This document shows, in pieces, positions 1 to 21,656 of a stretch of 24,103 bases of DNA. The translations under genes and the position numbers were made by a program. The stretch covers positions 1-24,103 of the forward strand of contig DSDZ01000059.1 in assembly GCA_011048475.1 (NCBI GenBank), read 5' to 3'. Source of the DNA: Bacteroides sp. (GTDB lineage: Bacteria; Bacteroidota; Bacteroidia; Bacteroidales; GCA-2748055). Under the pieces are notes generated by a model. It did not search any database and had not been told where the DNA came from. It saw only the letters and a program-made list of their open reading frames with translations. Numbering within the stretch: the stretch's first letter is position 1; each line of letters opens with the position of its first letter.

Positions 1-705
1 AAACACATCCAGAACTGTTCCTGCAAGCCTTCCCTTCCGGATCCCCTCCAGGAGTGCGGACTCGTCGACCACCTCACCCCGGGAGGTATTGACCAGGATG
101 GTTCCCTTTCTGACCCGTTCCATAAAACGCCTGTCGACCATCCCCGCGGTATTGTCCCTGCCTCCCCGGTTCAGGGGCACATGCAGGGTGATGATATCGG
201 CCTCTTCCAGGAGCCGGTCCAGTCCGGTGAACTGCGCTCCCCCTTCGGCACGCTGCCTGGGGGGATCGTTCAACAGCACGTTCACCCCCAGGGCTTCTGC
301 AGCCTCTGCCACCAGGCTCCCCACATGTCCCACTCCCACCACACCCAGTGTCAGGTCCCTCAGATCAAATCCCATCCTGAGCGCCAGGTGGAGAAGCACC
401 GACACCATGTATTGCTGCACGGAGGACGCGTTGCAGCCCGGTGCATTGGTCCACCTGATCCCTGCCTTGCGGCAATATTCCGTGTCGATGTGATCAAAAC
501 CGATGGTGGCCGAGGCGATCATCCGGATACCGGTATGCTCCAGAAGGGTCCGGTCGCACCGGGTTCGCGTCCTCGTGATCAGGCATTCCGCATCTTTCAG
601 ATCCGGTTGCCTGATTTCGCTCCCCGGCAGGTACGACACCTTCGCCACTTCTTCAAAAGCGCCCCTCAGGAACGGGATCCGGTCATCTGCCACGATCCGG
701 ATCAT
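1..705 (-). CDS. pdxB: 4-phosphoerythronate dehydrogenase (D-isomer-specific 2-hydroxyacid dehydrogenase family); 3' end truncated by window edge
   Basis: Hand translation from ATG at 705, open to base 1 (235 codons): MIRIVADDRIPFLRGAFEEVA...LITRTRTRCDRTLL...SATIGFDHIDTEYC...NAPGCNASSVQQY...LGVVGVGHVGS...LLNDPPR...DIITLHVPL...LVNTSRGEVVDE...VLDVF. RTRT, SATIGxDHID, APGCNA and NDPP are PdxB-type motifs. The start overlaps the upstream stop as ATGA. Confidence 0.88.
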   Translation of the reverse strand, partial: MIRIVADDRIPFLRGAFEEVAKVSYLPGSEIRQPDLKDAECLITRTRTRCDRTLLEHTGIRMIASATIGFDHIDTEYCRKAGIRWTNAPGCNASSVQQYMVSVLLHLALRMGFDLRDLTLGVVGVGHVGSLVAEAAEALGVNVLLNDPPRQRAEGGAQFTGLDRLLEEADIITLHVPLNRGGRDNTAGMVDRRFMERVRKGTILVNTSRGEVVDESALLEGIRKGRLAGTVLDVF

Positions 706-1979
706 CCGCGGGCAAATTTATCCTTCCAGGACCAGAGTCCCAGGGCAGGATTGGACACGAAATAAATCTCCTCCCCGTCTGCCAGTCGGTTATATCCCTC
801 CTCCAATTTAGCGGGATTGTACCGGGATATCATTTCGCCAAGATCCGCATACTGGTAATTCACCGATTCAATCTCTTCCTTTGAAAGGTGACCCGGGCAG
901 TAGGTGACCCCGAACCTCCCCTCCGAAGAACCATGGATCAGGTGTGCCGCGGCACTCAGGTTCTGCCTCAGTTCTTCATGGTGTTCCACCGCATCCAGGA
1001 TCTCCGGTGTGGTTTTGTACCCGTATTTCCTGATGAGCCTGTCAATCTCCCTGTCCTCCCCGAATTCCTTGAGTCCGGGTGCCAGTACCAGCAGTTCTCC
1101 CCCTCCGGCCAGTGCCATCCGGGTCCTGTAGATGCTTTTGTTCCCGAGCCACGTGCTTCTGAATTCTTCGGGCTCGAGGTACACCACGATCTTTTCCAGG
1201 GGTTTGTCCAGCATCACAAAATTTACCTCCAGGGAGAGTTCAGACGCCCTGAGGAAACACTGTGCATCGTCCCCGATAAACAGACCCCGGACGACCAGGC
1301 GGCCCGACCGGTCCCTGCCCACGACGGTCAGGACATACAGCAACGGCAGATCGGACGTAAAATGTCCGGAGGCATAATTGAGCACTTTTCTCACAGGTGT
1401 GTCGGCCCGTCCCATGATCCGTTCCAGTCCGTATGCAGCCCCCAGGAAATGACTCTTGTTGATCCCCTCAGGGCCCCCGGTCCCCACAAAAATATTCTTG
1501 TTGTAGTTTGCCATTCCGGCCACTTCGTGGGGGACCACCTGACCGACGGATACGATCAGGTCATGTCCCCCCTTTACGATCATGGTATTCAGCTGTGCGG
1601 GCCAGCTGTAGGAGACCATTCCCTCGGATACCTCTTTCAGAAAGCTTCCCGGCACCTCACCCACGGTGACCACATCATTCCTCCAGTCATGCACCCGGAA
1701 CAGGGAAACCGGCACGTCCGGGAACATTCTGTGAATCTCCGGCTCGGTCATGGGTTCATGGGTGCCGATGGCGGGCAGGATGTCGGTGAGCTTCTCTCCG
1801 TAGTATTCATGGACAAACCGTGTGATCAGCCCGGCCCTGCTGTAAAATCTTGTGATATCCGGCGGGATGGCAAGCACCCTGTTCCGGCGGCCCGCTTTGT
1901 CAAGAGCCCGGAATAATCCCTCCCTGATCTCCCCGTCGGTCAGGGCCACCTCTGGCCCGCCCTTTTCAAAATAGATCAT
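702..1979 (-). CDS. LarA/DUF2088 (lactate racemase superfamily) protein; probable sugar-acid 2-epimerase (GntE-like D-mannonate/D-gluconate epimerase)
   Basis: 425 aa. Motifs PPDITR (D41/R44), AIGTH (H74), VVPHEVAGMANYNK (H151, K161), INKSH (H177) and WLGNK (K281). His-10-Lys-16-His spacing equals LarA H174/K184/H200. Lies directly downstream of uxuB. The family call is strong; the substrate is inferred from context. Confidence 0.82.
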   Translation of the reverse strand: MIYFEKGGPEVALTDGEIREGLFRALDKAGRRNRVLAIPPDITRFYSRAGLITRFVHEYYGEKLTDILPAIGTHEPMTEPEIHRMFPDVPVSLFRVHDWRNDVVTVGEVPGSFLKEVSEGMVSYSWPAQLNTMIVKGGHDLIVSVGQVVPHEVAGMANYNKNIFVGTGGPEGINKSHFLGAAYGLERIMGRADTPVRKVLNYASGHFTSDLPLLYVLTVVGRDRSGRLVVRGLFIGDDAQCFLRASELSLEVNFVMLDKPLEKIVVYLEPEEFRSTWLGNKSIYRTRMALAGGGELLVLAPGLKEFGEDREIDRLIRKYGYKTTPEILDAVEHHEELRQNLSAAAHLIHGSSEGRFGVTYCPGHLSKEEIESVNYQYADLGEMISRYNPAKLEEGYNRLADGEEIYFVSNPALGLWSWKDKFARG

Positions 1980-2032
1980 CTGTACATTGTTTTGGTAAGC
2001 TTACATGGTTACAATCCATGGCCTTCAATCCC

Positions 2033-2884
2033 CTATACTCCTCCGTATGCGCTGTATCCTCCGTCCACCGGGATGCATATTCCGGTAATGAACCGGCTCA
2101 TATCCGAAAGCAGGTAGAGGACGGTCCCGTTGAGATCGTCAGGATCCCCGAACACCCCCATTGGCGTACTGGCGATGATCTTTTCTCCCCGTGGGGTCAG
2201 TTTGCCGGTTTTCTCGTCCAGCAGGAGGAACCTGTTCTGACTGGTCAGGAAAAAACCGGGTGCAATCGCGTTCACCCGCACGCCAACCTTGGCTAAATGC
2301 ACCGCTAGCCACTGGGTAAAATTGTTGATGGATGCTTTCGCGGCCGAATATGCCGGGATCTTCGTCAGCGGTCTGAAGGCGTTCATGGAAGAGATATTCA
2401 GCACCACCCCGCTCTGCCGGGTGGCCATCTCCCGGGTAAATACGAGGGTGGGCAGCAGCGTTCCCGTAAAATTCAGGTCAAACACTTTACGGAAACCATC
2501 CAGCTCAAGCCCGAAAAATCCTTCGTCCATCCGGTTCAGGTCCTCTTCGGTGATCTGTTCCAGCCGGGTGGTGGCACTGGGCGAATTTCCGCCCGCTCCG
2601 TTGATCAGGATGTCCACCCTGCCCGCCTCCCGTAGAATCTTTTCCCGCACCGCCTCGAGAGATCCCCTGTCCAGTACATCGGCTTTGTATCCGAAAGCAT
2701 CCACACCGGTCTCTGAGCGGATCTCTTCCGCAAGGCGGGAGGCCGCCTCTTCGTTGATATCCAGGATGACGGTGACCACCCCCGCCGAGGCCAGTCCCCG
2801 CGCTATCGATGATCCAAGCACACCCCCGCCGCCGGTGATCACACAGATCTTGTCTTTCAGGTCTACGAATGATAATTGTTCCAT
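2033..2884 (-). CDS. uxuB: D-mannonate oxidoreductase / fructuronate reductase (SDR family)
   Basis: Start reassigned to ATG 2884 (283 aa), 1 nt after the lacI-1 stop. TGGGGVLG, NGAGGN, YSAAK, RVNAIAPGFFLTSQNR match the SDR-type UxuB; next to uxaE/uxaC. Confidence 0.85.
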   Translation of the reverse strand: MEQLSFVDLKDKICVITGGGGVLGSSIARGLASAGVVTVILDINEEAASRLAEEIRSETGVDAFGYKADVLDRGSLEAVREKILREAGRVDILINGAGGNSPSATTRLEQITEEDLNRMDEGFFGLELDGFRKVFDLNFTGTLLPTLVFTREMATRQSGVVLNISSMNAFRPLTKIPAYSAAKASINNFTQWLAVHLAKVGVRVNAIAPGFFLTSQNRFLLLDEKTGKLTPRGEKIIASTPMGVFGDPDDLNGTVLYLLSDMSRFITGICIPVDGGYSAYGGV

Positions 2885-2885
2885 G

Positions 2886-3947
2886 TCAGTGTTGTGATTT
2901 GGGTTCGTAAAATGCCAGGTTTTCCCTGGTAATGATATCGATGGGAAGAAACTGCTTCCGCTCGGGCTCCCGGTTAAAGGCAACCAGGTTAAACAGCGAT
3001 GTAAGTCCCCTGAATGCCTGTTCTTCAGGCCTCTGGGAAATCAGAAAATCGATGTAATCCCTTTTCAGATATTCGATGCTCTCCGGGAGCAGGTCGTATC
3101 CCACCAGCCGGATGTTCATAATGCCGCGGGAGGCCAGGTACCCGGCAACCAGGTGGACCCGGGAATTGGTCACAAAGATCCCCGCAATTTCATACCTTGC
3201 AAATGCCTCCTCCAGCCGCTCCTCCAGCTCGTGATCACCTGCTCCGTTCAGATCAATGGTGAGAAGATGGTCCGGCCGGCCGCCATGTTCCTCAAAAAAA
3301 CTCCTGAATCCTTTTTCACGCTGGATGATATGGGCATAATGATCCTTCCGTGCAGAAAGGTTCATGATGAGCACATCCTTCCCGGGCAGCATCCCGTAAT
3401 CGATGAGCCTGGCTGCCACCATTCCGCTGTGAAAGGCATCCTGACCCACAAAACTCCTGACGGCCGGAGACTCCAGCATGGAATTGAAAAGGACCACCGG
3501 CAGATTCCACCGGCCGCACTGTTCAAGGAATTCCACCGACTCCTTCTGAAAAACGGGAGCGAACAGGACCCCGTGGAGTTGTTCAAAGGGAAATCCATTC
3601 ACCAGCTTGAGGAAATCTTTCCGGTCGATCTGGTCGAAATTGAAATGCTCCACCTGGAGATGGTAATGGGACAGTTCATCAAGGGCCCGGTCGATCCCTT
3701 TCCGGGGCAGTTTCCAGAAAACGTGTTCGTTCACGATCTTCGGCATCACCACCGCCAGGCGGATCTCCCGCTTTAAAGCCAGCGAACTGGCCATAAAATC
3801 AGGCTTGTAGTTGTATTCGCGCAGCAGTTTCTGGATCTTTTCGCGGGTAGCATCGGACACTTCGCCCCGGTTATGGATCACCCGGTCCACCGTTCCGATG
3901 GATACCCGGGCGATTTCAGCGATATCCTTGATCCTGATTCTCTGCAT
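2886..3947 (-). CDS. LacI-family transcriptional regulator (lacI-1; UxuR-like hexuronate regulator)
   Basis: N-terminal HTH RIKDIAEIARVSIGTVDRVIHNRG plus periplasmic-binding-protein-like sensor domain; divergent from uxaE-uxaC. Confidence 0.92.
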   Translation of the reverse strand: MQRIRIKDIAEIARVSIGTVDRVIHNRGEVSDATREKIQKLLREYNYKPDFMASSLALKREIRLAVVMPKIVNEHVFWKLPRKGIDRALDELSHYHLQVEHFNFDQIDRKDFLKLVNGFPFEQLHGVLFAPVFQKESVEFLEQCGRWNLPVVLFNSMLESPAVRSFVGQDAFHSGMVAARLIDYGMLPGKDVLIMNLSARKDHYAHIIQREKGFRSFFEEHGGRPDHLLTIDLNGAGDHELEERLEEAFARYEIAGIFVTNSRVHLVAGYLASRGIMNIRLVGYDLLPESIEYLKRDYIDFLISQRPEEQAFRGLTSLFNLVAFNREPERKQFLPIDIITRENLAFYEPKSQH

Positions 3948-4009
3948 AATTATTTATTATGAGATGCTTACGCAGATTTTCCTTCTCACAAAGAGTGGTT
4001 CATTCCCAC

Positions 4010-4017
4010 CAAAATTA
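4010..4017 (-). promoter_or_regulatory. Putative Bacteroidota -7 promoter element for the lacI-1/uxuB/larA-like/pdxB operon
   Basis: TAATTTTG on the minus strand fits TAnnTTTG, about 60 nt upstream of the lacI-1 ATG; no clear -33 TTTG. Confidence 0.4.
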
Positions 4018-4027
4018 ATGAAAATAT

Positions 4028-4059
4028 TTTGTAAATAAGAAGAAAATTGCCTATTTTCG
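4028..4059 (+). promoter_or_regulatory. Putative Bacteroidota sigma-ABfr-type promoter for uxaE-uxaC
   Basis: TTTG (4028-4031), 20-nt spacer, TATTTTCG (4052-4059; one mismatch to TAnnTTTG), 38 nt before the uxaE ATG. Confidence 0.6.
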
Positions 4060-4075
4060 TGTTCGTACACGGAAA
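4054..4075. promoter_or_regulatory. Putative LacI-type operator (probably for lacI-1)
   Basis: TTTTCGTGTTCGTACACGGAAA: CG-centred palindrome, 18/22 positions symmetric, overlapping the predicted -7 box and start site of uxaE. Confidence 0.65.
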
Positions 4076-4097
4076 CAATCAGATAATCTTCAGATTC

Positions 4098-5345
4098 ATG
4101 AAACTTGAAAAATATTCCTTCGGGATTGGCGACAGGTTCGCGCAGCAGGGAGAGGCACAGCTCAGTGCCATCATGAAAGCCGCTGAAAAAGGAGTGGAGA
4201 TCGTTCCGGTCTGGAACAAATCCAACCGCGAACACCAGAACATCCATTCTTCCCCTTCAGACACCAGGAAGGAAGCCGATGATGCGGTGCGGAAACTGGG
4301 CTGGGAGCATTCCTATTACGTGGATGCGGACCACATCAACCTGGACACGGTGGACCGGTTTCTTCCCCACTCCGATTTTTTTACCCTGGACGTGGCCGGA
4401 TATCTGGGAAAGGAAGTACCAGCAGAAGAGCTGAATAGGTTCCTGGACGCCGCGGAAGGGATGACGGGCAGGCTGCAGATCCCGGGGATCAGCGAGCCAT
4501 TTCAAATTTCCGTGGACATCCTGAAAAGGATTGCCGGAACATTCCTAGGGGCAGTGAAGGAGGCATCGGCCATCTACAGGCACATCGCATCCGGAAAGGG
4601 AGCAGAGCAATTTGTTGCGGAGATCTCCATGGACGAAGTAGAGGAGCCGCAGACACCCGTGGAACTTTTCTTTATCCTGATGATGATCAGCCACTTTGAT
4701 ATTCCAGTACAGACGATCGCACCAAAATTCACGGGAAGGTTCAACAAAGGAGTGGATTACGTGGGGGATGTGGTGCAGTTCCGTAAAGAATTTGAACAGG
4801 ACCTGCTCGTCATCGATCATGCCGTCAAATCGTTCGGGCTCCCGGAGAACCTGAAGCTGAGCGTGCACTCTGGCAGCGACAAATTCACCATTTATCCGAT
4901 CATGGGGGAGCTGATCCGTAAACATGACAAAGGCATCCACGTGAAAACAGCGGGCACGACCTGGCTGGAAGAGGTGATCGGACTGGCGCTGTCGGGTGAC
5001 GATGCGCTTCAGATGGCAAAGACCATCTACGCCCGTGCGCTCGAAAGGCGGGAGGAGCTGTGCGCACCCTATGCCACCGTGATCGATATTGATCCGGACA
5101 CCCTTCCGGCTCCGGACGAGGTCAACGGCTGGAACGGTGAGAAATTTGCCGGAACCCTGCGGCACGTGCCGGACCATCCCCATTACAATCCGGGATTCCG
5201 GCAATTGATCCACGTGGGATACAAAGTGGCCGCCGATATGGGCGAGCAGTACCTTTCCATGGTGAGGAAATACAGACGGGTGGTCGGGGATCAGGTAGAG
5301 ACCAACCTTTTCGACCGGCATATCAGGCGGCTGTTCGGCATCTGA
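4098..5345 (+). CDS. uxaE: Tagaturonate/fructuronate epimerase
   Basis: Start reassigned to ATG 4098 (415 aa). SFGIGDRF, VWNKSNREH, DADHI, KLSVHSGSDKF and HVKTAGTTWLE are UxaE-family motifs; precedes uxaC. Confidence 0.88.
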   Translation: MKLEKYSFGIGDRFAQQGEAQLSAIMKAAEKGVEIVPVWNKSNREHQNIHSSPSDTRKEADDAVRKLGWEHSYYVDADHINLDTVDRFLPHSDFFTLDVAGYLGKEVPAEELNRFLDAAEGMTGRLQIPGISEPFQISVDILKRIAGTFLGAVKEASAIYRHIASGKGAEQFVAEISMDEVEEPQTPVELFFILMMISHFDIPVQTIAPKFTGRFNKGVDYVGDVVQFRKEFEQDLLVIDHAVKSFGLPENLKLSVHSGSDKFTIYPIMGELIRKHDKGIHVKTAGTTWLEEVIGLALSGDDALQMAKTIYARALERREELCAPYATVIDIDPDTLPAPDEVNGWNGEKFAGTLRHVPDHPHYNPGFRQLIHVGYKVAADMGEQYLSMVRKYRRVVGDQVETNLFDRHIRRLFGI

Positions 5346-5402
5346 TCCACGGATTGGGACACTCCCTGTGAATGAAACTGAGAAAATCTAATAATCACTC
5401 GA

Positions 5403-6827
5403 ATGAAAAAATTTTTGGACCAGGATTTCCTGCTGGAAAATGAAACGGCCCGCAGGCTCTATCATGAATGTGCCAGCAAGATGCCGATCATCGATTACCA
5501 TTGCCACCTGAATCCCGAACAGATCGCAGGGGATGTGAATTTTGAGAACCTGACCAGGATCTGGCTTGCGGGAGATCATTACAAGTGGCGGGCCATGCGG
5601 GCAAACGGAGTGGACGAAAAGTACTGCACGGGCGATGCGCCGGACAGGGAAAAATTCATGAAATGGGCGGAAACCGTGCCGGACACCATCCGCAATCCAC
5701 TCTACCACTGGACACACCTGGAGCTGCAGCGGTATTTCGGTATCTCTGAACTGCTTCATCCCGGGTCGGCGGAAGGGATCTACCGGCAGGCAAACGAACT
5801 GCTGGCCACAAAGGAGTTCAGCGTCAGGCAACTCATCCGGAAAATGAATGTGGAGGTGATCTGCACCACGGATGACCCGGTGGATACCCTGGAACACCAC
5901 CGGAAAATCCGTGGGGACGGATTCGAGACCCTGGTCCTGCCCGCCTGGCGTGCCGACAAAGCACTGGCGGTGGAGGATCCCGACCAGTACAACCAGTACC
6001 TTGGAAAGCTTGAAGCCGCCTCGGGCATTTCCATATCCACCTACATGGATTTGCTCACGGCCTTGAGCAACAGGCATGACTTTTTCAATGAAATGGGCTG
6101 CAGGGTCTCGGACCACGGGATGGAGACCTTCCATGCAGATGATTTTGATCACCAGGACATCGAAAGGATCTTTCTGAAGATCAGGAAAGGAAGGAAACCG
6201 AACAAGCAGGAAATAAGTCAGTTCAAATCAGCCATGCTGATCGAGCTGGCAGTCATGGACCACGAGAAGGACTGGGTGCAGCAGTTCCATGTGGGGGCGA
6301 TCCGGAACAACAACACCCGGAGGTTCCACGAAATGGGTCCGGATACCGGTTTTGACTCTATCGGGGATTTCAAAATGGCAAGGACCCTGTCCAGGTTCCT
6401 GGATACGCTCGATCAGCGCGAACAGCTGGCAAAGACCATTCTTTACAACATCAATCCCGGCGACAATGCGCTGATGGTGACCATGGCCTGCAATTTCAAC
6501 GACGGGATTACACCGGGCAAGATGCAGCACGGTTCCGGCTGGTGGTTTCTCGACCAAAAATACGGAATTACAGACCAGATCAACACCCTCTCCGCGCTCG
6601 GACTGCTCAGCCGTTTCGTGGGCATGCTGACGGACTCACGAAGTTTCCTGTCCTATCCCAGGCATGAATATTTCAGGAGGATCCTCTGCAACCTGGTGGG
6701 AACGGATGTGGAAAAGGGAGAGATCCCCGATGATCCCGCGATGCTGGAGAACCTGATCAGCAATGTTTGTTACCACAATGCGAAAAATTACTTCGGGTTT
6801 CGACCGGGTCCGGTAGCTGGTTCATGA
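5403..6827 (+). CDS. uxaC: Glucuronate (uronate) isomerase
   Basis: 474 aa. FLDQDFLL, PIIDYHCHL, GDHYKWRAMR, GSGWWFLDQ, FVGMLTDSRSFLSYPRHEYFRRILCN. Confidence 0.97.
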   Translation: MKKFLDQDFLLENETARRLYHECASKMPIIDYHCHLNPEQIAGDVNFENLTRIWLAGDHYKWRAMRANGVDEKYCTGDAPDREKFMKWAETVPDTIRNPLYHWTHLELQRYFGISELLHPGSAEGIYRQANELLATKEFSVRQLIRKMNVEVICTTDDPVDTLEHHRKIRGDGFETLVLPAWRADKALAVEDPDQYNQYLGKLEAASGISISTYMDLLTALSNRHDFFNEMGCRVSDHGMETFHADDFDHQDIERIFLKIRKGRKPNKQEISQFKSAMLIELAVMDHEKDWVQQFHVGAIRNNNTRRFHEMGPDTGFDSIGDFKMARTLSRFLDTLDQREQLAKTILYNINPGDNALMVTMACNFNDGITPGKMQHGSGWWFLDQKYGITDQINTLSALGLLSRFVGMLTDSRSFLSYPRHEYFRRILCNLVGTDVEKGEIPDDPAMLENLISNVCYHNAKNYFGFRPGPVAGS

Positions 6828-6868: not shown

Positions 6869-9472
6869 GTGCGAACAACCATTCTTATTGCAATCCTTGC
6901 CTGCTTTCTGCAGCCCCTGTATTCCCAAGGCATCCGCGGGGAAATCAGGGACCAGCAGGGTGAGCCTGTTCCCTACGCGGCCATCTACATCAGGGAACTG
7001 ACCCGGGGCACCACCTGTAACGCCCTGGGATCATTCAGCCTGCCGCTACCCCCCGGCCGGTACACGATCTATTTCAGAAGCCTGGGATATACCGAGGTGG
7101 CCCGCACGGTCACCCTGGAAGAAGAATACCTGGATCTTCAGATTCAGCTGCCCCCCAGAACCTATATGATCCCGGAGGTCAGGATCAGTGCCAGCGGGGA
7201 GGATCCGGCCTACTGGATCATGAGAAAGGCCATCGGGCTGGCCAGTTACCACCTGAATGAAGTGGCGGGATACCAGGCGGAGATCTATATCAAGGGAACC
7301 GCATATTTCGAGAGCTTCCCCAGGGCCATCGCGCGAAGGATCGAGGTGGGTGATATCAGGGTAAAGGAAGACCAGGTCTATCTACTGGAATCAATGAACC
7401 AGGTGACCTATAACGCTCCGGACAAATATGAAATGAAGGTGCTCGCCTCCCAGAATACCATTCCCGGATACAGCCAGAATGTGAATCCAATGGATTACAT
7501 CAATGCGAGCCTCTACCAGGAAAGGATCCAGACCTTCGTCTCCCCGCTTGCCCGGAATGCATTCTTCTACTATCAATTTCATTTCGAAGGAACCTTTGTG
7601 GAGGGGTCCCATGTGGTCAACAAGATCAGGGTTACCCCGAAACGAAGCAGCCAGCAGTTGTGCGAGGGATACCTATACATCGTGGAGGATCTCTGGTGCC
7701 TCCACTCCTCCGACCTGCAGATAAAAACCATCGCGGGCACCCTGTTCCTGCAGCAGCTCTATGCCAATGTGATCATGGATGCCTGGCTTCCCGTGAACCA
7801 TAAGATCAGGGCCGATGTGGAGATTGCAGGTGTGAAAGGGGAAATCACCTATGTCTCTTCGCTGGAGTATTCCGATGTGTCCCTCAATCCAAACCTGCCC
7901 GAGGTCTACTTTACACCGACGGAAGATCCGGGGGAGGAGGCCGGGAAGGAAGAGCAGCCTTCAGAGGAACAGAAAAAAATCATGGAGCTTCTGGAGAAAG
8001 AGGATCTGACCGACCGGGATGTGGCCCGTCTGTCCAGGCTCATGGAGAAGGAAGCGGAACAATCAGACACCGGGGAGGGACAGGACCTGCACCAGACGGG
8101 AACCACATTCACCGTGGCGGAAAATGCCGTCAAAAACGATTCCCTCTTCTGGAACCGGGTGCGTCCCATCCCCCTGACCCCGAAGGAACAGATGCAGATG
8201 AGGGAGCGGGACTCAATCATCGGGATCACCCGGAAAGCGGCAGCGTCGGACAGCATGGGTTTCGTCCCCCGGAGGGCCCGTCCGCTCAGGGGACTGGTCC
8301 TGGGCAGGACATACAGGGCTGATTTCGGGCGGTTCCGGTTTACCCACGGGGGACTGGCCGATCCGGAGATGCTGGGGTACAATACGGTGGACGGGATCCA
8401 CTACGGGCAGGATTTCAGGCTCTACTGGAAACCCGACAGCCTCCATACGGTCAGGTCGCGCCTGGCGGCGGGATACGCATTCCACCGCCGCGCCCCGATG
8501 GTCACCTGGAACTCCGATCTGCTCTACGCTCCCATGAGAAGAGGTAAAATTGCCCTCTACCTGAACTACACTTCGTCAGACTTTCACGCCGCATCGGGGA
8601 TCCCGGCGCGTACGAACCTGGTCTATACGCTGTTCCTGAGGGAGAATCATCTGAAGAAGTACGAGCAGATCGACGCCACCCTGTACAACCGCATTGATCT
8701 TGTGAACGGACTGGTACTTACCGCCGAAGTCGCCGGAGGGATCCAGGAGCCGCTGACGAACCACAGCGACTTCTCCATCCTGTTTACCCGAAAAAAGGAG
8801 TTCTCGGAGAATTTACCGGCCGGAATCCAGGCGGGCGATCCGGCCCTGGAGCGAAGGAAGAAAATGACCACCGCGGTCCGGCTCGACTTTACACCCAGGC
8901 ATTATTTCGTGGTGAGAAATGCTCGGAAGGCGATGGAGGATTCCCGGTGGCCCACCTTCTCGCTCCTTTACAAAACGGGGATCCCAATGCAGGAAAACGG
9001 ATGGTCCCGTTTCAGCATGCTGGAATTCGGGGTGGAGCATACCGCCGGGGTGGGACTGCTCTCCGAACTGGACTGGCAAGTGAATACGGGCTATTCCCCT
9101 GCCGGCGGGTCCCTGCATTTTTCGGATTTCAGGCATTTCAAATCATACCCGCTGGCAGTCGACATGGCCGGTTTTGACGGGGGACTGATGCTGATGGACT
9201 ATTATGAAGCAAGTACGGATGAGTGGTGGGTGAATGCAGATGTGACCCTCACCTCCTCTTACCTGCTTCTGAAATTCCTTCCCTGGTTCAGTGAAAGATT
9301 GTGGAAGGAATCCATCGGGATCGGCTATCTCCTTACCCCTGCCATCCCTCATTACCTGCAAATCGGATACAGTCTTGAGGAGATCTTCTTCCTGGCGGAC
9401 CTGGGGATCTATGCCGCATTCCAGGATTTCTCATGGAAGGGATTCGGCGTCAGGGTCAACTTCCGTTTCTGA
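6869..9472 (+). CDS. DUF5686 and carboxypeptidase-regulatory-like domain protein; probable outer-membrane protein
   Basis: GTG start, 867 aa, signal peptide. N-terminal IRGEIRDQQGEPVPYAAIYI..GTTCNALGSFSL..LGY (CarboxypepD_reg-like), then EIYIKG and WNRVRPIPLT as in DUF5686 proteins. Ends in amphipathic VRVNFRF with terminal Phe. Confidence 0.75.
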   Translation: MRTTILIAILACFLQPLYSQGIRGEIRDQQGEPVPYAAIYIRELTRGTTCNALGSFSLPLPPGRYTIYFRSLGYTEVARTVTLEEEYLDLQIQLPPRTYMIPEVRISASGEDPAYWIMRKAIGLASYHLNEVAGYQAEIYIKGTAYFESFPRAIARRIEVGDIRVKEDQVYLLESMNQVTYNAPDKYEMKVLASQNTIPGYSQNVNPMDYINASLYQERIQTFVSPLARNAFFYYQFHFEGTFVEGSHVVNKIRVTPKRSSQQLCEGYLYIVEDLWCLHSSDLQIKTIAGTLFLQQLYANVIMDAWLPVNHKIRADVEIAGVKGEITYVSSLEYSDVSLNPNLPEVYFTPTEDPGEEAGKEEQPSEEQKKIMELLEKEDLTDRDVARLSRLMEKEAEQSDTGEGQDLHQTGTTFTVAENAVKNDSLFWNRVRPIPLTPKEQMQMRERDSIIGITRKAAASDSMGFVPRRARPLRGLVLGRTYRADFGRFRFTHGGLADPEMLGYNTVDGIHYGQDFRLYWKPDSLHTVRSRLAAGYAFHRRAPMVTWNSDLLYAPMRRGKIALYLNYTSSDFHAASGIPARTNLVYTLFLRENHLKKYEQIDATLYNRIDLVNGLVLTAEVAGGIQEPLTNHSDFSILFTRKKEFSENLPAGIQAGDPALERRKKMTTAVRLDFTPRHYFVVRNARKAMEDSRWPTFSLLYKTGIPMQENGWSRFSMLEFGVEHTAGVGLLSELDWQVNTGYSPAGGSLHFSDFRHFKSYPLAVDMAGFDGGLMLMDYYEASTDEWWVNADVTLTSSYLLLKFLPWFSERLWKESIGIGYLLTPAIPHYLQIGYSLEEIFFLADLGIYAAFQDFSWKGFGVRVNFRF

Positions 9473-12561: not shown

Positions 12562-12573
12562 AAACTGTTGATT

Positions 12574-13416
12574 ATGGCAATTCATTATGAAGTAAGACTT
12601 TCGCATCATCCCGAGGATACAAAGCAGTACGGGACGGAAAAGATCCGGAAGGAGTTCCTTGTGGAGAAACTGATGGTCGGCGGTGAGATCAACCTGGTCT
12701 ATTCGCTGTACGACCGGTTTATCGTCGGCGGAGCGGTTCCGGGAAAGGAGAAGCTTGAGCTGACCACCATCGATCCGCTGAAATCTGAGCATTTCTGTGA
12801 TCGCCGGGAACTGGGGATCATCAATGTGGGAGGGGATGCCGCAATCCGCGTGGACGGGGAAACCTATTCCCTCGGATACAAAGATGCCCTCTACGTGGGG
12901 GCCGGCTCAAAAAAGATTGCATTCACGAGCAGGGACGAGAGCAGACCCGCACACCTGTACCTCAACTCGGCACCCGCCCATCATGCCTATCCCACAAGGC
13001 GGATTACCCTGGCTGACGCCGAGGTGGTTGAACTGGGTGCCCCGGAACAGTCCAATGCACGCAGGCTGAACAAATTGCTTGTGAACAGCGTGGTGGATAC
13101 CTGCCAGCTGCAGATGGGGATGACCGAACTGAAAACGGGCAGTGTCTGGAACACGATGCCTCCCCATACGCACACCCGGCGGATGGAGGCCTATTTCTAT
13201 TTTGAGGTGCCGGAGGACCAGGCCATCTGTCACCTGATGGGAGAACCCGACGAAACCAGGCTCATCTGGCTCAAAAATGAACAGGCGGTCATCTCCCCGC
13301 CCTGGTCCATTCATGCAGCCGCGGGAACCAGCAACTACATCTTCATCTGGGGAATGGCCGGTGAGAACCTGGATTACGGCGATATGGACGTGGTCAAGCC
13401 CTATGAACTCAGGTAA
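12574..13416 (+). CDS. kduI: 5-dehydro-4-deoxy-D-glucuronate isomerase
   Basis: 280 aa from ATG 12574. DRFIVGG, RRELGIINVGG, CQLQMGMT, WNTMPPHTHTRRMEAYFYF, QAVISPPWSIH. Confidence 0.96.
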   Translation: MAIHYEVRLSHHPEDTKQYGTEKIRKEFLVEKLMVGGEINLVYSLYDRFIVGGAVPGKEKLELTTIDPLKSEHFCDRRELGIINVGGDAAIRVDGETYSLGYKDALYVGAGSKKIAFTSRDESRPAHLYLNSAPAHHAYPTRRITLADAEVVELGAPEQSNARRLNKLLVNSVVDTCQLQMGMTELKTGSVWNTMPPHTHTRRMEAYFYFEVPEDQAICHLMGEPDETRLIWLKNEQAVISPPWSIHAAAGTSNYIFIWGMAGENLDYGDMDVVKPYELR

Positions 13417-13429
13417 TACAAGCATACCC

Positions 13430-13786
13430 ATGGACAGTCATGTTTTAGCCGGCTCTGACCCGGGCTGGCAGGAGATTGCGCCAGGCGCCAGGAGGAAACT
13501 GATCCATACCGACCACCTGATGATGGTCATCGTGGAGTTCACCGGCGGACCGGCAGAGGTACCGGACCCGTTCCACGACCATCCCCACGAACAGGTTTCC
13601 TTCGTGGCCGAGGGCAGGCTCAGGCTCTTGATGAAAGGATACGAAGAGCGGGAACTGCAGGAGGGGGACATGTTCGCTGTCCCCTCCGGGATCCCCCATG
13701 CCATCCAGACCCTGTCGCCCGTGGTGAGGCTCGTGGATTGCTTTACACCGCTGCGGCAGGATTTTTTAGAAACCAACAGAAAATAA
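13430..13786 (+). CDS. kdgF: Cupin protein, KdgF-like (ring opening of unsaturated monouronates)
   Basis: 118 aa from ATG 13430. Cupin metal motif HDHPHEQ...PSGIPH, C-terminal DCFTPLRQDFL, between kduI and kduD. Confidence 0.8.
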   Translation: MDSHVLAGSDPGWQEIAPGARRKLIHTDHLMMVIVEFTGGPAEVPDPFHDHPHEQVSFVAEGRLRLLMKGYEERELQEGDMFAVPSGIPHAIQTLSPVVRLVDCFTPLRQDFLETNRK

Positions 13787-13793
13787 AGCAGAC

Positions 13794-14582
13794 ATGTCAG
13801 TAAAACGATTCGATCTAACAGGAAAACGGGCGCTGGTAACCGGCGGAACCCATGGCCTTGGTATGGCCATCGCCACCGGGCTTGCCGAAGCAGGCGCCAC
13901 CATCATTGTCAACGACAGGTTTCCCGAAAAGCTTGAAACCGCCAGAAAGGAATATGGTGAAAAGGGCATCACGGTCCATACCTATGTCCTGGATGTCACC
14001 GATGAGGATGCCGTGACCCATGCAATCCCCCGCATCGAAAAGGAAGCGGGTCCCATTGACATCCTGGTGAACAATGCCGGGATCATCAAGCGGGTCCCCA
14101 TCCTTGAAATGAAAGCCGACGAGTTCCGGGAAGTCCTCGATGTGGACCTTACGGGACCATTCATCATGTCAAAGGCGGTGGCCGCCGGGATGATCAAACG
14201 CGGCCACGGGAAGATCATCAACATGTGTTCCATGATGAGCGAACTGGGAAGGGACACGGTTTCCGCCTATGCCTCTGCAAAAGGAGGACTGAAGATGCTC
14301 ACCCGGAGCATGGCCACCGAATGGGCCAAACACAACATCCAGATCAACGGCATCGGTCCCGGTTACTTTGCCACGGCGCAGACGGCACCCATCCGTGTGG
14401 ACGGGCATCCTTTCAATGACTTTATCATCAACCGGACCCCGGCGGGCCGGTGGGGCAACCCGGAAGATCTGGCCGGCACGGCCATCTTCCTCGCTTCCTC
14501 CGCCTCCGATTTCGTGAACGGGGTCGTGGTCTATGTGGATGGCGGCATCCTTGCCACCATCGGAAAACCCATGAATGAATAA
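13794..14582 (+). CDS. kduD: 2-dehydro-3-deoxy-D-gluconate 5-dehydrogenase / gluconate 5-dehydrogenase-type SDR
   Basis: 262 aa. TGGTHGLG, NNAGIIKR, SMMSELGR, YASAK, NGIGPGYFAT, RTPAGRWG. Sequence is of the type often labelled gluconate 5-dehydrogenase; the KduD role is inferred from linkage to kduI. Confidence 0.8.
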   Translation: MSVKRFDLTGKRALVTGGTHGLGMAIATGLAEAGATIIVNDRFPEKLETARKEYGEKGITVHTYVLDVTDEDAVTHAIPRIEKEAGPIDILVNNAGIIKRVPILEMKADEFREVLDVDLTGPFIMSKAVAAGMIKRGHGKIINMCSMMSELGRDTVSAYASAKGGLKMLTRSMATEWAKHNIQINGIGPGYFATAQTAPIRVDGHPFNDFIINRTPAGRWGNPEDLAGTAIFLASSASDFVNGVVVYVDGGILATIGKPMNE

Positions 14583-17997: not shown

Positions 17998-18020
17998 TCA
18001 GATTATCGTTAGTTTTGAAG

Positions 18021-18034
18021 GTGCAATCGATTGT
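18021..18034. promoter_or_regulatory. Second copy of the lacI-2-type operator
   Basis: GTGCAATCGATTGT is identical to 11494-11507 and lies between the -7 box and the kdgA ATG, a repressor position. Confidence 0.72.
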
Positions 18035-18044
18035 GCAAACGACC

Positions 18045-18707
18045 ATGAAAAGAATTGATGTGGCCTTGAAAATGAGGGAAATCGGTGTGGTTCCCCTGTT
18101 CTACCATCCTGACATCGAGGTCTGCAAAAAAGTAATTGCCGCGTGTTACAGGGGAGGCATGACCCTCTTCGAATTCACCAACCGGGGCGATCATGCCCAT
18201 GAGACCTTCTCGGAACTTGTCAGGTGGGCCAAACAGCAGATGCCCGACCTGGTGATGGGCATCGGTTCGGTGGTGGACCCCGGCACATGCTCGCTGTACA
18301 TCCAGCTGGGGGCAAAATTCATCGTCTCTCCCCTGCTCAACGAAGAGATGGGCAGGATATGCAACCGCAGGAAAGTATTATGGATCCCCGGCTGCGCCAC
18401 GGCATCTGAGATCAGCCGGGCGGAGGAAGCCGGGGCGGAGATCATCAAGATATTCCCCGGTTCCACCGTGGGAGGTCCTGCATTTGTAAAAGCCTACCTG
18501 GGGCCCTGTCCGTGGTCAAATCTCATGCCGTCAGGCGGTGTGTCACCCACCAGGGAAAACCTCACGGAATGGTTCAGTGCAGGGGTTTTTGCTGTGGGGA
18601 TGGGTTCCCGGCTGATCACCAGAGAGATCCTTACGGAACAGAATTACAGGAAACTGGAAGAAGCCGCAAGAAATGCGGTGGAGACCATTCAGAAAATCAG
18701 AAGTTAA
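18045..18707 (+). CDS. kdgA: KDPG/KHG aldolase
   Basis: Start reassigned to ATG 18045 (220 aa). GVVPLFY, FEFTNRG, GAKFIVSP, WIPGCAT, KIFPG (Schiff-base Lys), MPSGGV. Confidence 0.92.
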   Translation: MKRIDVALKMREIGVVPLFYHPDIEVCKKVIAACYRGGMTLFEFTNRGDHAHETFSELVRWAKQQMPDLVMGIGSVVDPGTCSLYIQLGAKFIVSPLLNEEMGRICNRRKVLWIPGCATASEISRAEEAGAEIIKIFPGSTVGGPAFVKAYLGPCPWSNLMPSGGVSPTRENLTEWFSAGVFAVGMGSRLITREILTEQNYRKLEEAARNAVETIQKIRS

Positions 18708-18720
18708 ATTCCCATTTTGC

Positions 18721-19752
18721 ATGAAGATCAGAACCTGCCTTTACCTGACCCTGCTGATCCTGCCGCTGATGGGCTGCCGGAACCAGCAAGAAGGCCGGGT
18801 GCTTAAACTGGCCCACGGGCTGGATCCTTCCCATCCCGTTCACCATGCCATGGAGTTCATGGCAGACCGCTGCAAGGAGATATCCGGCGAGCAACTGACC
18901 CTCGAGATCTACCCGAGCGGACAGCTGGGCTCCGAACAACAGTGCGTGGAACTTCTGCAGATCGGCAGCCTTGCCATTACAAAAGTGTCCTCCGCGGTCA
19001 TGGAGAGTTTCACGGAAGACTTCCAGGTGTTCGGGCTCCCATATATTTTCAGGTCCCGGGAACACTATTTCAAGGTGCTTGACAGCGAGATCGGTGATGA
19101 TATCCTGCGGAGCGCGGAGCCATACTGGATCAGGGGGCTCTGCTTCTATGATGCGGGCAGCCGCAGCTTCTACACCATCGACCGGCCCATCAATCACCCG
19201 GATGACCTGAAAGGATTGAAGCTCAGGGTGATGAAGAGCATCACCGCGATGAACATGGTCAAATCCCTGGGAGGCTCCCCCACTCCCATCTCGTGGGGTG
19301 AGCTGTATACGGCACTGCAGAGCGGCGTGGTGGACGGTGCCGAAAACAATCCCCCGAGCTTCTACACAAGCCACCACTATGAGGTATGCAAATTTTTCAG
19401 CCTGAACGAACACACCTCCATCCCCGATGTGCTGATCGTCTCCCTGAAGGTGTGGGAAAAGCTTTCCGACCAGGAAAAAATGTGGCTTCAGCAGGCGGCG
19501 GACGAATCGGTGCAGGTGGAGCGTGAGCTGTGGGCCGAATCGGAAAAGAAGTCCCTTGAAATCGTACAGGAGGAGGGTGTCACCGTGGTCTATCCCGACA
19601 AGGAACCGTTTGCGCGCAAAGTGGAACCCCTTCTTGAGTCTTACAGGGACAACAGGAAGATCTATGACCTGATCACCCGCATCCGGGAAGTGCAGGCGGA
19701 TGAAGAACCAAAAATCACCATAGATGGAAAAGATAGCATACTGGTTGAATAA
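18721..19752 (+). CDS. dctP: TRAP transporter substrate-binding protein (DctP family), lipoprotein
   Basis: 343 aa from ATG 18721. Lipobox LMGC; LKLAHGL, IYPSGQLG, LKGLKLRVM (carboxylate-binding Arg), ELYTALQSGVVDGAENN. Confidence 0.93.
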   Translation: MKIRTCLYLTLLILPLMGCRNQQEGRVLKLAHGLDPSHPVHHAMEFMADRCKEISGEQLTLEIYPSGQLGSEQQCVELLQIGSLAITKVSSAVMESFTEDFQVFGLPYIFRSREHYFKVLDSEIGDDILRSAEPYWIRGLCFYDAGSRSFYTIDRPINHPDDLKGLKLRVMKSITAMNMVKSLGGSPTPISWGELYTALQSGVVDGAENNPPSFYTSHHYEVCKFFSLNEHTSIPDVLIVSLKVWEKLSDQEKMWLQQAADESVQVERELWAESEKKSLEIVQEEGVTVVYPDKEPFARKVEPLLESYRDNRKIYDLITRIREVQADEEPKITIDGKDSILVE

Positions 19753-20197
19753 GATCCTGGAAGCAACACTTGTCATCCTGATGTCCGTACTGGTCATTGA
19801 TGTGCTTTGGCAGGTGATCAGCCGTTACCTGCTGAGTTCTCCCAGCTCCTTCACAGACGAACTGGCAGGATTCCTGCTCATCTGGGTCGGTGTCCTGGGC
19901 GCCGCTTATGTGGCGGGGAGACAGGAGCACCTGGCCATTGATATCCTGGTCCAGCGGTCACCTCCCGGGCGGCAGCGAAAATTGCTCTTTTTCATCCGGT
20001 CGCTGATTTTCCTGTTTGCCCTTTTCGTGATGGTCATCGGCGGGATCGTGCTCATGTACACCCGCTTTTTGCTGGATGTGAAATCGGCAGCCCTTCAGCT
20101 TCCGCTGGGATATGTGTACATCGTGCTACCGCTGAGCGGACTGATCATTATGTTCTATGAAGTGGTGCATCTTAGCGAACTAAAAAAATCCAGATAA
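19724..20197 (+). CDS. dctQ: TRAP transporter small permease
   Basis: 157 aa, four TM segments; QVISRY, TDELA, IWVGVLGAAY, HLAID. Overlaps the dctP end by 29 nt. Confidence 0.92.
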   Translation: MEKIAYWLNKILEATLVILMSVLVIDVLWQVISRYLLSSPSSFTDELAGFLLIWVGVLGAAYVAGRQEHLAIDILVQRSPPGRQRKLLFFIRSLIFLFALFVMVIGGIVLMYTRFLLDVKSAALQLPLGYVYIVLPLSGLIIMFYEVVHLSELKKSR

Positions 20198-20198
20198 C

Positions 20199-21656
20199 AT
20201 GGAAGTACTCGTCCTGGTGCTCTCTTTCGTGATCCTGCTCGCCATCGGCGTTCCCATTGCTTTCAGTATCGGCATCTCGGGCATCCTGACCATGCTCATG
20301 TCCATCGATTTCATTCCCGCCTTTACCACATATGCACACCGGATGGCCACCGGGCTGGACAGTTTCGCCCTTCTGGCGATCCCGTTCTTCGTGCTCGCCG
20401 GGTCCATCATGAACAGCGGCGGGATCGCCATGAGGCTGATTGACTTTGCCCGGGTGCTGGTGGGCAGGTTCCCCGCCGGACTGGCATTTGTGAATGTGAT
20501 CGCCAACATGCTGTTCGGCGCCATCTCAGGTTCCGCAGCGGCCTCCTCCTCGGCCATCGGGACCATTATGACCCCGGAGATGAAAAAGGAGGGATATGAG
20601 CCCGGATTCAGCGCCGCCGTGAACATCACATCGGCCACGACAGGACTGACCATCCCACCCAGCAATGTGCTGATCGTCTATTCGCTTGCCAGTGGCGGCG
20701 CATCCATCACGGCCCTGTTCCTGGCGGGGTATGTACCGGGAATCATGACCGGTTTCGGGATCATGCTCGTGGCACTGGCCATGGTCGTGTTCAAGAACAG
20801 GGGGATCAGGGGCGTCGTGCGCGTGCTGGGCAAAATCGTCCTGCTGTCCGCCGTGCTCCTGGGGATCGGCATCGGTCTCAAGGCCCTGCATGATCATGCT
20901 TCAGGGCTGATCTTCAAACTCGTCATCTACGCCCTGCTCGGGATCCTGCTTGCCTGGGTGGTATACAAATCCGTGAAACACTGGAAAGGATTCAAATTCG
21001 CATTCCGCAAATTCATTGACGCGGTACCCTCCCTCCTGATGCTGGTCATCGTGATCGGCGGGATCGTGGCCGGGTATTTCACGGCCACCGAGGCCTCCGC
21101 CGTCGCCGTGCTGTATGCCCTGATCCTGGCTTTGATCTACAGGGAGATCACCCTGAAGGATTTGCCAGGGATCATCCTGACCTCCATCAGGACCACCTGC
21201 ATCGTCCTCCTGCTGGTCGCCACCAGCATCGGGATGTCATGGATCATGTCCTACGAGAACATTCCCCAGAGCGTGAGTGCCGGGCTGCTCAACCTGAGCG
21301 ACAACCCGTACATCATCCTGCTGATCATCAACCTGATCCTGCTGTTTGTCGGGATTTTCATGGACATGACGCCCGCCATCCTGATCTTCACCCCCATTTT
21401 CCTGCCGATCGTCACATCCCAGCTGGGGATCGATCCCATCCATTTCGGGATCATCATGGTTCTGAACCTCTGTGTGGGGCTGTGCACGCCCCCGGTGGGA
21501 TCTGTGCTGTTTATCGGTTGCAGCGTGGCCAACCTGAAGATCGAACAGGTCATCAAGCCGCTTCTGCCCATGTTCCTGATCATGATCGTGGTGCTGATGC
21601 TGGTCACTTATATCCCTGCACTCAGCATGTGGATCCCTAATTTACTTATGAAATAG
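20199..21656 (+). CDS. dctM: TRAP transporter large permease (with internal hydrophobic insertion)
   Basis: 485 aa. LLAIPFFVLAG, FGAISGSA, IPPSNVLIVY, FTATEASAV, TPPVGSVL. Confidence 0.94.
   Translation: MEVLVLVLSFVILLAIGVPIAFSIGISGILTMLMSIDFIPAFTTYAHRMATGLDSFALLAIPFFVLAGSIMNSGGIAMRLIDFARVLVGRFPAGLAFVNVIANMLFGAISGSAAASSSAIGTIMTPEMKKEGYEPGFSAAVNITSATTGLTIPPSNVLIVYSLASGGASITALFLAGYVPGIMTGFGIMLVALAMVVFKNRGIRGVVRVLGKIVLLSAVLLGIGIGLKALHDHASGLIFKLVIYALLGILLAWVVYKSVKHWKGFKFAFRKFIDAVPSLLMLVIVIGGIVAGYFTATEASAVAVLYALILALIYREITLKDLPGIILTSIRTTCIVLLLVATSIGMSWIMSYENIPQSVSAGLLNLSDNPYIILLIINLILLFVGIFMDMTPAILIFTPIFLPIVTSQLGIDPIHFGIIMVLNLCVGLCTPPVGSVLFIGCSVANLKIEQVIKPLLPMFLIMIVVLMLVTYIPALSMWIPNLLMK

Follow-up and report, generated by a model that had tools for sequence, protein, structure and literature searches.

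Background

In the canonical isomerase pathway of hexuronate catabolism, UxaC is followed by UxaB and UxaA or by UxuB and UxuA, and then by KdgK and Eda. A different route has been proposed for Thermotoga by Rodionova et al. 2012, in which, as that work is reported in two later papers (PMC6978723, PMC7583248), mannonate is converted to gluconate by GntE and is then passed to GntK and Gnd. The hexuronate locus of Thermotoga maritima carries gnd, uxaE, a gene for a short-chain dehydrogenase/reductase (SDR), gntE and gntK (PMC7583248, PMC6978723). Here we investigate a locus with the same pathway logic in a Bacteroidales genome, on a contig of 24,103 nucleotides (DSDZ01000059.1 of assembly GCA_011048475.1; "the window" hereafter means this whole stretch), in which a homologue of LarA is encoded at positions 702–1979, directly after uxuB. 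An initial annotation of the window had proposed that this protein is a nickel-pincer nucleotide (NPN) dependent epimerase that sends mannonate towards 6-phosphogluconate, in place of dehydration.

Mannonate/gluconate epimerase activity has been described for groups 19, 20 and 15 of the LarA superfamily, with Km values of 9–120 mM (Desguin 2020, PMC7583248; Urdiain-Arraiza 2024, PMC11770544). Group 18 is listed in the supplement of Desguin 2020 as "G2E3", a putative hexonate epimerase with 25 members, the commonest neighbours of which are an SDR (36%), 6-phosphogluconate dehydrogenase (32%) and a ribokinase-family kinase (16%), with glucuronate isomerase and KduI also found nearby (PMC7583248).

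A related system is that of Lactobacillus suebicus, in which UxaC, UxaE and UxuB feed mannonate to 6-phosphogluconate and Gnd, as we propose here, and UxuA, KdgK and KdgA are by-passed. Extracts of this organism phosphorylate mannonate and then epimerise 6-phosphomannonate, activities that were described without gene assignment (Valk 2020, PMC6978723). In the literature searched, mannonate kinase and 6-phosphomannonate are mentioned only in that paper.

The initial annotation knew of no characterisation of such a route in Bacteroidota. We found none in the literature searched, but the literature and NCBI models already cover the family, together with the function predicted for it and its gene context, and the route has been published for other phyla (PMC7583248, PMC6978723). 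What is new here is evidence, at the level of the genus, that UxuA, UxaA and Edd are absent, and a distribution of LarE and of a PfkB-family kinase that matches that of the epimerase within one order. Is the mannonate made by UxuB passed to Gnd? And would it be epimerised before it is phosphorylated, or after? We consider it probable that an NPN epimerase of the GntE-like branch links the mannonate of UxuB to the 6-phosphogluconate of Gnd.

Genomes and loci compared

The source assembly is a 3.06-Mb metagenome-assembled genome (MAG) of 532 contigs, 69.7% complete and of probable hot-spring metagenome origin; the 24.1-kb window is its contig C1. Its nearest public relatives are Bacteroidales MAGs. 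Phyletic counts refer to 18 congeners (genomes of the same genus), many of them 95–100% complete, and the wider set comprises 31 genomes. We use LarA18 for homologues of LarA-superfamily group 18 (Desguin 2020) such as the protein encoded at 702–1979 on the minus strand, and contrasts between genera were drawn between six other LarA18-positive genera and six sampled LarA18-negative genera. The cross-phylum scan took one genome per species; the best 80 loci were inspected, and the gene was callable in 72 of them. In these 72 loci a neighbour is a gene at most four genes away on the same strand, unless otherwise stated.

Identity of the LarA homologue

The 425-aa protein encoded at 702–1979 matches the NCBIfam model NF052594, "nickel-dependent putative hexonate epimerase", with 651.5 bits (cut-off 500). 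The next best models, those of malate racemases, reach only 34 and 21 bits, and the LarA N-terminal domain PF09861 scores 33.9 bits (cut-off 23.3). The NCBIfam model is named NPN_18_hexonate, which indicates group 18 of Desguin 2020. The signatures of this group are present as the H151-E-V loop, W277-L-G-N-K-S in helix 11 and A344-A-H-L-I-H-G-S in helix 14, and these residues agree with what the supplement of Desguin 2020 lists for group 18 (PMC7583248). Of the solved structures, Thermotoga GntE2 alone is significantly related to it (4NAR; 122 bits, E 2.7e-34, residues 12–356 aligned), against 12.7 bits (E 0.38) for lactate racemase LarA. As the initial annotation described, D41, R44, H74, H151, K161, H177 and K281 are all there, with H-10-K-16-H spacing; these seven catalytic and NPN residues align with their equivalents in GntE2 and are invariant in 8 orthologues.

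By these hidden Markov model and PDB scores, on which the placement rests, the protein is assigned to the GntE side of the LarA superfamily rather than to the lactate or malate racemases, as had been suggested, and there to the catalogued group 18. It shares the signatures and the tabulated neighbours of that group, with no family-level difference. With GntE2 (LarAH20) it has in common the fold family and the catalytic and NPN residues, but GntE2 lies in a separate LarAH group and the similarity between the two is only remote; the window protein is not in the assayed GntE groups 19, 20 and 15. Its predicted substrate is D-mannonate/D-gluconate or their 6-phosphates.

The source genome also encodes a second, more canonical LarA paralogue (G000:C471:455-1684, L120; PF09861 144 bits, with LarA_C), and there are therefore at least two NPN-dependent enzymes in it. 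A copy is present in the congener G018 (L122:3713-4945). This paralogue is followed by a protein of about 400 aa that falls in no family, and an adenosine phosphosulfate (APS) kinase gene lies 2–3 kb off in congeners.

Gene order and its conservation

The epimerase gene stands in a string of genes on the minus strand, lacI-uxuB-larA-pdxB-gnd. The first is a LacI-family regulator (2886–3947; PF00356, PF13407), the position of which is conserved in relatives. It is followed by uxuB (2033–2884), which encodes an SDR-type fructuronate reductase/D-mannonate oxidoreductase of 283 aa (NF006132, 384 bits, cut-off 281). As read from the sequence, uxuB starts with the ATG at 2884, 1 nt past the LacI stop; the listed open reading frame (ORF), which begins with a TTG and reaches 2983, is over-extended, and the orthologues of relatives are of 283 aa. 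The larA-like gene follows after the 53 nt first noted (1980–2032), and its stop is overlapped by the pdxB start (ATGA, 702–705). The window holds the 5' part of pdxB, 235 codons (1–705, minus strand; NF001309, 309 bits, model positions 1–233), and the gene runs off the contig end. On the plus strand, divergent from lacI, are uxaE, for a tagaturonate/fructuronate 3-epimerase (4047–5345; PF16257, 177 bits), and uxaC, for uronate isomerase (5403–6827; PF02614, 690 bits; NF002794, 653 bits). The start of uxaE is uncertain; its orthologues, of 413–416 aa, are 60–73% identical and hold the same position in relatives. The profile scores thus place uxaC, uxaE and uxuB where the initial annotation had them, and uxuA, uxaA and uxaB are, as it also said, not among the window genes in profile scans of the window proteins.

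The broken end of the string was recovered by tblastn in the same assembly. Contig C156 carries the 3' half of pdxB (C156:3-443) and then, about 46 nt on, gnd (C156:493-1944), the product of which is 85% identical to a congener's Gnd, so the source genome has the same five-gene string, interrupted by a contig end. In ten relatives the gene after the LacI-UxuB-LarA18-PdxB string has a 484-aa product, which is 6-phosphogluconate dehydrogenase (TIGR00873, 750–769 bits), and the order lacI-uxuB-larA-pdxB-gnd is found in five families of the order. In each of five good genomes the gnd of the operon is the only canonical one. Neither zwf nor pgl was found directly after gnd.

Close relatives of the window protein are present in at least 585 species. 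The best 80 loci, at 62–73% identity, are spread over Bacteroidota, Ignavibacteriota, Planctomycetota, Verrucomicrobiota, Acidobacteriota, Spirochaetota and others; the cultivable Saccharicrinis sp. FJH62 and Limisphaera sp. VF-2 are among the carriers. UxuB is a neighbour in 50 of the 72 loci, and so is Gnd, which flanks the epimerase in many phyla; the search for gnd that the initial annotation called for thus found it in the same operon and well beyond this genus. The other neighbours are fewer: the KdgK-like PfkB kinase in 27 loci, PdxB in 24, UxaC in 16 (32 within six genes on either strand), UxaE in 14 (33 within six genes on either strand) and UxuA in 4. A functional unit would be expected to show just such a constant UxuB-epimerase-Gnd core amid otherwise shuffled neighbours, and the comparative genomics supports the pathway as it was first noted.

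In 14 loci a Gfo/Idh/MocA oxidoreductase gene encoding 325–357 aa lies between the epimerase gene and gnd (L055:9649-10665, L061:11269-12252 and others), and one is also seen at L018:2171-3178. Most loci with this insert have no PfkB kinase nearby.

What is pdxB doing in this string? Bacteroidales and Ignavibacteria, together with a single gammaproteobacterial MAG, account for the 24 loci in which it lies between the epimerase gene and gnd. Of 31 relatives, 26 carry a single pdxB copy, and the gene is present in 7 of 7 LarA18-positive versus 2 of 6 LarA18-negative genera, with pdxJ in 12 of 13. A role as a pathway enzyme was considered and set aside, the gene being single-copy in each genome and also found away from the cluster in LarA18-negative genera. 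We treat it as a vitamin B6 gene of the 4-phosphoerythronate dehydrogenase type; its distribution departs in part from that of pdxJ. The gene may be a bystander of this kind, or may have a role with phosphorylated 2-hydroxy acids.

Dehydratases in the genus

The dehydratases of the canonical pathway are the part that the genus appears to lack. UxuA (PF03786) was not found in the source genome (69.7% complete) nor in 17 of 18 congeners; the remaining one has a partial match of 90 bits, and a full gene is present in none of the 18. UxaA was not found in any of five congeners. Both results are in line with the initial annotation, which had asked for these genes to be sought beyond the window. Each of the five congeners has a single IlvD/Edd-family gene, which leaves no spare Edd or gluconate dehydratase. 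A short Mannitol_dh-family gene is present in 4 of the 5, far from the locus. Within the window's genus, the shunt appears to stand alone, without dehydration of mannonate or altronate.

One enolase-superfamily protein of the source genome (468 aa) scores below all curated cut-offs. It is encoded next to an RraA-like aldolase, an SBF-family transporter and an alpha-L-rhamnosidase, in a cluster (G000:C40:5943-11680, L118) that may serve a non-phosphorylative deoxy-sugar-acid route.

Supply of the nickel cofactor

An NPN enzyme calls for LarB, LarC and LarE, which the initial annotation had proposed to look for. They were found in relatives: all 18 congeners have LarE, as do 5 of the 6 other LarA18-positive genera (the genome without it is 82% complete), and LarC is present in 5 of 5 good relatives. 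LarE was not found in any of the six LarA18-negative genera sampled. The congener G018 has a nikR-larE-larC-larB operon (L011, G018:C3:428063-432199). In Saccharicrinis sp. FJH62 (L060), larC, larB, a nickel permease gene and nikR adjoin the epimerase cluster itself.

The gene after larB in G018 has an HxxxxDH putative metal-binding motif and no NCBIfam family; it is possibly a nickel permease.

The candidate kinase

In Thermotoga a canonical gluconokinase is encoded beside gntE, whereas the window's genus has a KdgK-like PfkB kinase instead. This protein of 357–362 aa, encoded for example at L026:16319-17392 and L017:7636-8724, co-occurs with the epimerase and scores 123 bits on Thermotoga KdgK (2AFB), compared with 327 for the canonical KdgK of the genus. 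All but one of the 18 congeners have an orthologue of at least 70% identity, as do 5 of the 6 other LarA18-positive genera; none of the six negative genera has one, and these include G024, which has UxuA and KdgK. In many loci the kinase gene is directly beside that of the epimerase, often immediately upstream. This divergent KdgK-like protein is likely the kinase of the route. The context tabulated for group 18 (an SDR, Gnd and a ribokinase-family kinase) is thus found with the SDR and Gnd in the window operon and the kinase in 17 of 18 congeners.

Many congeners have a tandem paralogue of this kinase, at 33–35% identity. In G017 the pair (L028:6031-8263) sits with genes for a major facilitator superfamily transporter, an aldo-keto reductase, a zinc-dependent alcohol dehydrogenase and a Gfo/Idh/MocA protein, and in G008 xylA and the PfkB kinase gene are separated by that of a 7-bladed beta-propeller lactonase (L030:8777-9940; PF10282, 335 bits). 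Some lineages have, just upstream of the epimerase gene and in PfkB's place, a phosphofructokinase (PFK) family kinase of the PRK14072 type (369 bits) together with a HAD-like protein about 296 aa long (L067:4525-6717, L035:7581-9780, L068, L089, L053, L079). This pair may be a non-orthologous solution to the kinase step.

Proposed route and its alternatives

Which substrate is used, in which direction the flux runs and which protein acts as the kinase are inferred here. UxaC would isomerise galacturonate to tagaturonate and glucuronate to fructuronate, UxaE would convert tagaturonate to fructuronate, and the SDR UxuB would reduce fructuronate to D-mannonate. The NPN epimerase would invert C2 and the kinase would phosphorylate C6, giving 6-phosphogluconate, which the co-transcribed Gnd would decarboxylate to ribulose 5-phosphate. 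In the genus this shunt would replace the dehydration of mannonate and altronate. The upper steps, UxaC and UxuB, are shared with the canonical pathway, and 2-keto-3-deoxygluconate (KDG) kinase (KdgK) and 2-keto-3-deoxy-6-phosphogluconate (KDPG) aldolase (Eda) would be kept only for the products of KduI and KduD. As in the Thermotoga-type route, UxaC, UxaE, an SDR reductase, a LarA-type epimerase and Gnd are encoded together in the source genome. The lower part of the L. suebicus route is the phosphoketolase pathway, unlike that proposed here.

Several observations weigh against this shunt. The initial annotation had mannonate reach 6-phosphogluconate and Gnd without dehydration; synteny and the failure to find UxuA and UxaA support this, but the gluconokinase that it expected was not found, and a PfkB protein is the candidate instead. 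No thermoresistant-type gluconokinase (TIGR01313) was found above the cut-off in the 31 genomes, and no FGGY kinase at the gntK_FGGY (TIGR01314) cut-off in five genomes, which makes the phosphorylation step conjectural. Weak TIGR01313 matches (about 24 bits) near the second LarA paralogue are APS kinase by Pfam, and the best FGGY scorer is missing from several LarA18-positive genomes, the FGGY gene of the window being placed with xylA; both were rejected as gluconokinases. In the window's genus the PfkB kinase gene is outside the operon, 20–30 kb off, after fucosidase and sulfatase genes, and neither it nor KdgK was found in the source assembly. LarB, LarC and LarE were likewise not found in the source MAG, although at 69.7% completeness their absence says little. 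Zwf is present in most congeners, so Gnd is also a housekeeping enzyme there and its adjacency could in part be inherited synteny. In other families of the order (G019, G028) UxuA is encoded inside the epimerase cluster; it follows that the epimerase does not just take the place of UxuA, and the shunt can coexist with dehydration. The function given for group 18 is a prediction for the whole group, and its describers say only "a hexonate" (PMC7583248).

Within the shunt we lean slightly towards epimerisation before phosphorylation, the Thermotoga model. The reverse order, in which the PfkB protein would be a D-mannonate kinase and LarA18 a 6-phosphomannonate 2-epimerase, gives the same product and the same overall route, and we hold it to be a serious possibility, if not the favoured one. 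Extracts of L. suebicus left free mannonate unepimerised, and with ATP they gave 6-phosphomannonate that was interconverted with 6-phosphogluconate (PMC6978723); the co-occurring PfkB kinase is not of a gluconokinase type and is often encoded just upstream of the epimerase; and the Km values of the characterised GntE enzymes for free mannonate are in the range given above, 9–120 mM (PMC7583248, PMC11770544). However, the nearest assayed relatives, GntE2, GntE1 and LarAH15, do act on free mannonate, and no phosphate site is apparent in the protein encoded at 702–1979. It is possible, though less likely than not, that LarA18 and the PfkB kinase are the 6-phosphomannonate 2-epimerase and mannonate kinase of the L. 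suebicus route. If so, 6-phosphomannonate would be a real intermediate in a cassette that spans Bacteroidota, Ignavibacteriota, Planctomycetota, Verrucomicrobiota and Acidobacteriota, and LarA18 would be the first NPN enzyme to act on a phosphorylated substrate.

Might the shunt instead be a side branch, with most mannonate dehydrated to KDG by an unrecognised ManD-like enzyme, or by a UxuA on a missing contig, and then handled by KdgK and the Eda of the window? The main caveat to our reading is a ManD-like enolase-superfamily protein in G018, and perhaps in others, which could dehydrate mannonate. A search for a hidden mannonate dehydratase among the seven enolase-superfamily genes of G018 returned six of epimerase, o-succinylbenzoate synthase or other types and this one, the score of which (386 bits) is below the cut-off of 550. 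The window encodes Eda, KduI and KduD, KdgK is present in congeners, the source assembly is incomplete, and several relatives have UxuA beside the epimerase. But the UxuA-free congeners include many that are nearly complete, UxaA was not found in the five searched, the ManD-like protein, encoded far from the locus, scores under the two curated cut-offs and was not seen in all congeners, and the enolase-superfamily gene of the source genome sits with rhamnosidase and RraA-like genes. We think such a side branch unlikely. That the substrate is another one altogether (L-gulonate/L-idonate, altronate/allonate or an aldarate), with the adjacency of gnd and pdxB being inherited synteny without meaning for the pathway, we think very unlikely. 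It would suit the describers' broad "hexonate" for group 18 and the doubt that the same authors cast on the native substrate of GntE1 (PMC7583248), as well as a gnd that is the genome's only copy and a pdxB that looks like a housekeeping gene. Yet UxuB, the epimerase and Gnd are found together as a core, amid shuffled neighbours, in Bacteroidota, Ignavibacteriota, Planctomycetota, Verrucomicrobiota and Acidobacteriota, D-mannonate is the product of UxuB, and the cluster has no conserved enzyme that makes another hexonate.

The mannonate-to-Gnd shunt would yield ribulose 5-phosphate, CO2 and NADPH from the uronic acids of pectin and other glycans, not pyruvate and glyceraldehyde 3-phosphate, and this would alter the predicted redox and carbon balance of many uncultured polysaccharide degraders. 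Pathway calls keyed to UxuA or UxaA would rate the genus as unable to use hexuronates. For annotation, a LarA18 gene beside uxuB and gnd should be taken to belong to hexuronate catabolism with a need for nickel and LarBCE. The cassette also names candidate genes for the kinase step and for the order of kinase and epimerase.

Other features of the window

The two promoters and an operator presumably lie in the divergent intergenic region between lacI and uxaE (3948–4046). This region showed no clear palindrome, and a repeat scan and a motif search gave no consistent result. A LacI operator common to this locus and to the kinase gene of congeners was also rejected, the palindrome GGAATGAATCATTCC before eda (17956) having no consistent copies elsewhere.

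To the right of uxaC are kduI and kduD (12568–14582, plus strand; NF002091, 420 bits; NF005488, 443 bits, with 263 bits for the KduD model), an unsaturated-uronate branch that gives KDG, so that a KDG/KDPG route coexists with the shunt. Further on are eda, for KDPG aldolase, and dctP, dctQ and dctM of a tripartite ATP-independent periplasmic (TRAP) transporter (18015–21656, plus strand; NF005499, 336 bits; TIGR00787, TIGR00786), which is likely the uronate uptake system. A DUF4861/BT3233-family gene, a PKD/beta-helix protein gene and xylB-xylA are also found in this part of the window. In the congener G018, which is assembled in 10 contigs, pdxB, kduI, kduD and lacI-2 are each split into two ORFs (L016:10300-11540; L027:12195-14790), which look like long-read indel errors rather than real pseudogenes.

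Directly after uxaC is a gene for an 867-aa protein with CarboxypepD_reg and DUF5686 domains (6869–9472). The pairing of uxaC with this gene is kept in congeners and in three other Bacteroidales loci (L031, L034, L046), and its product may act at the outer membrane in connection with uronate use.

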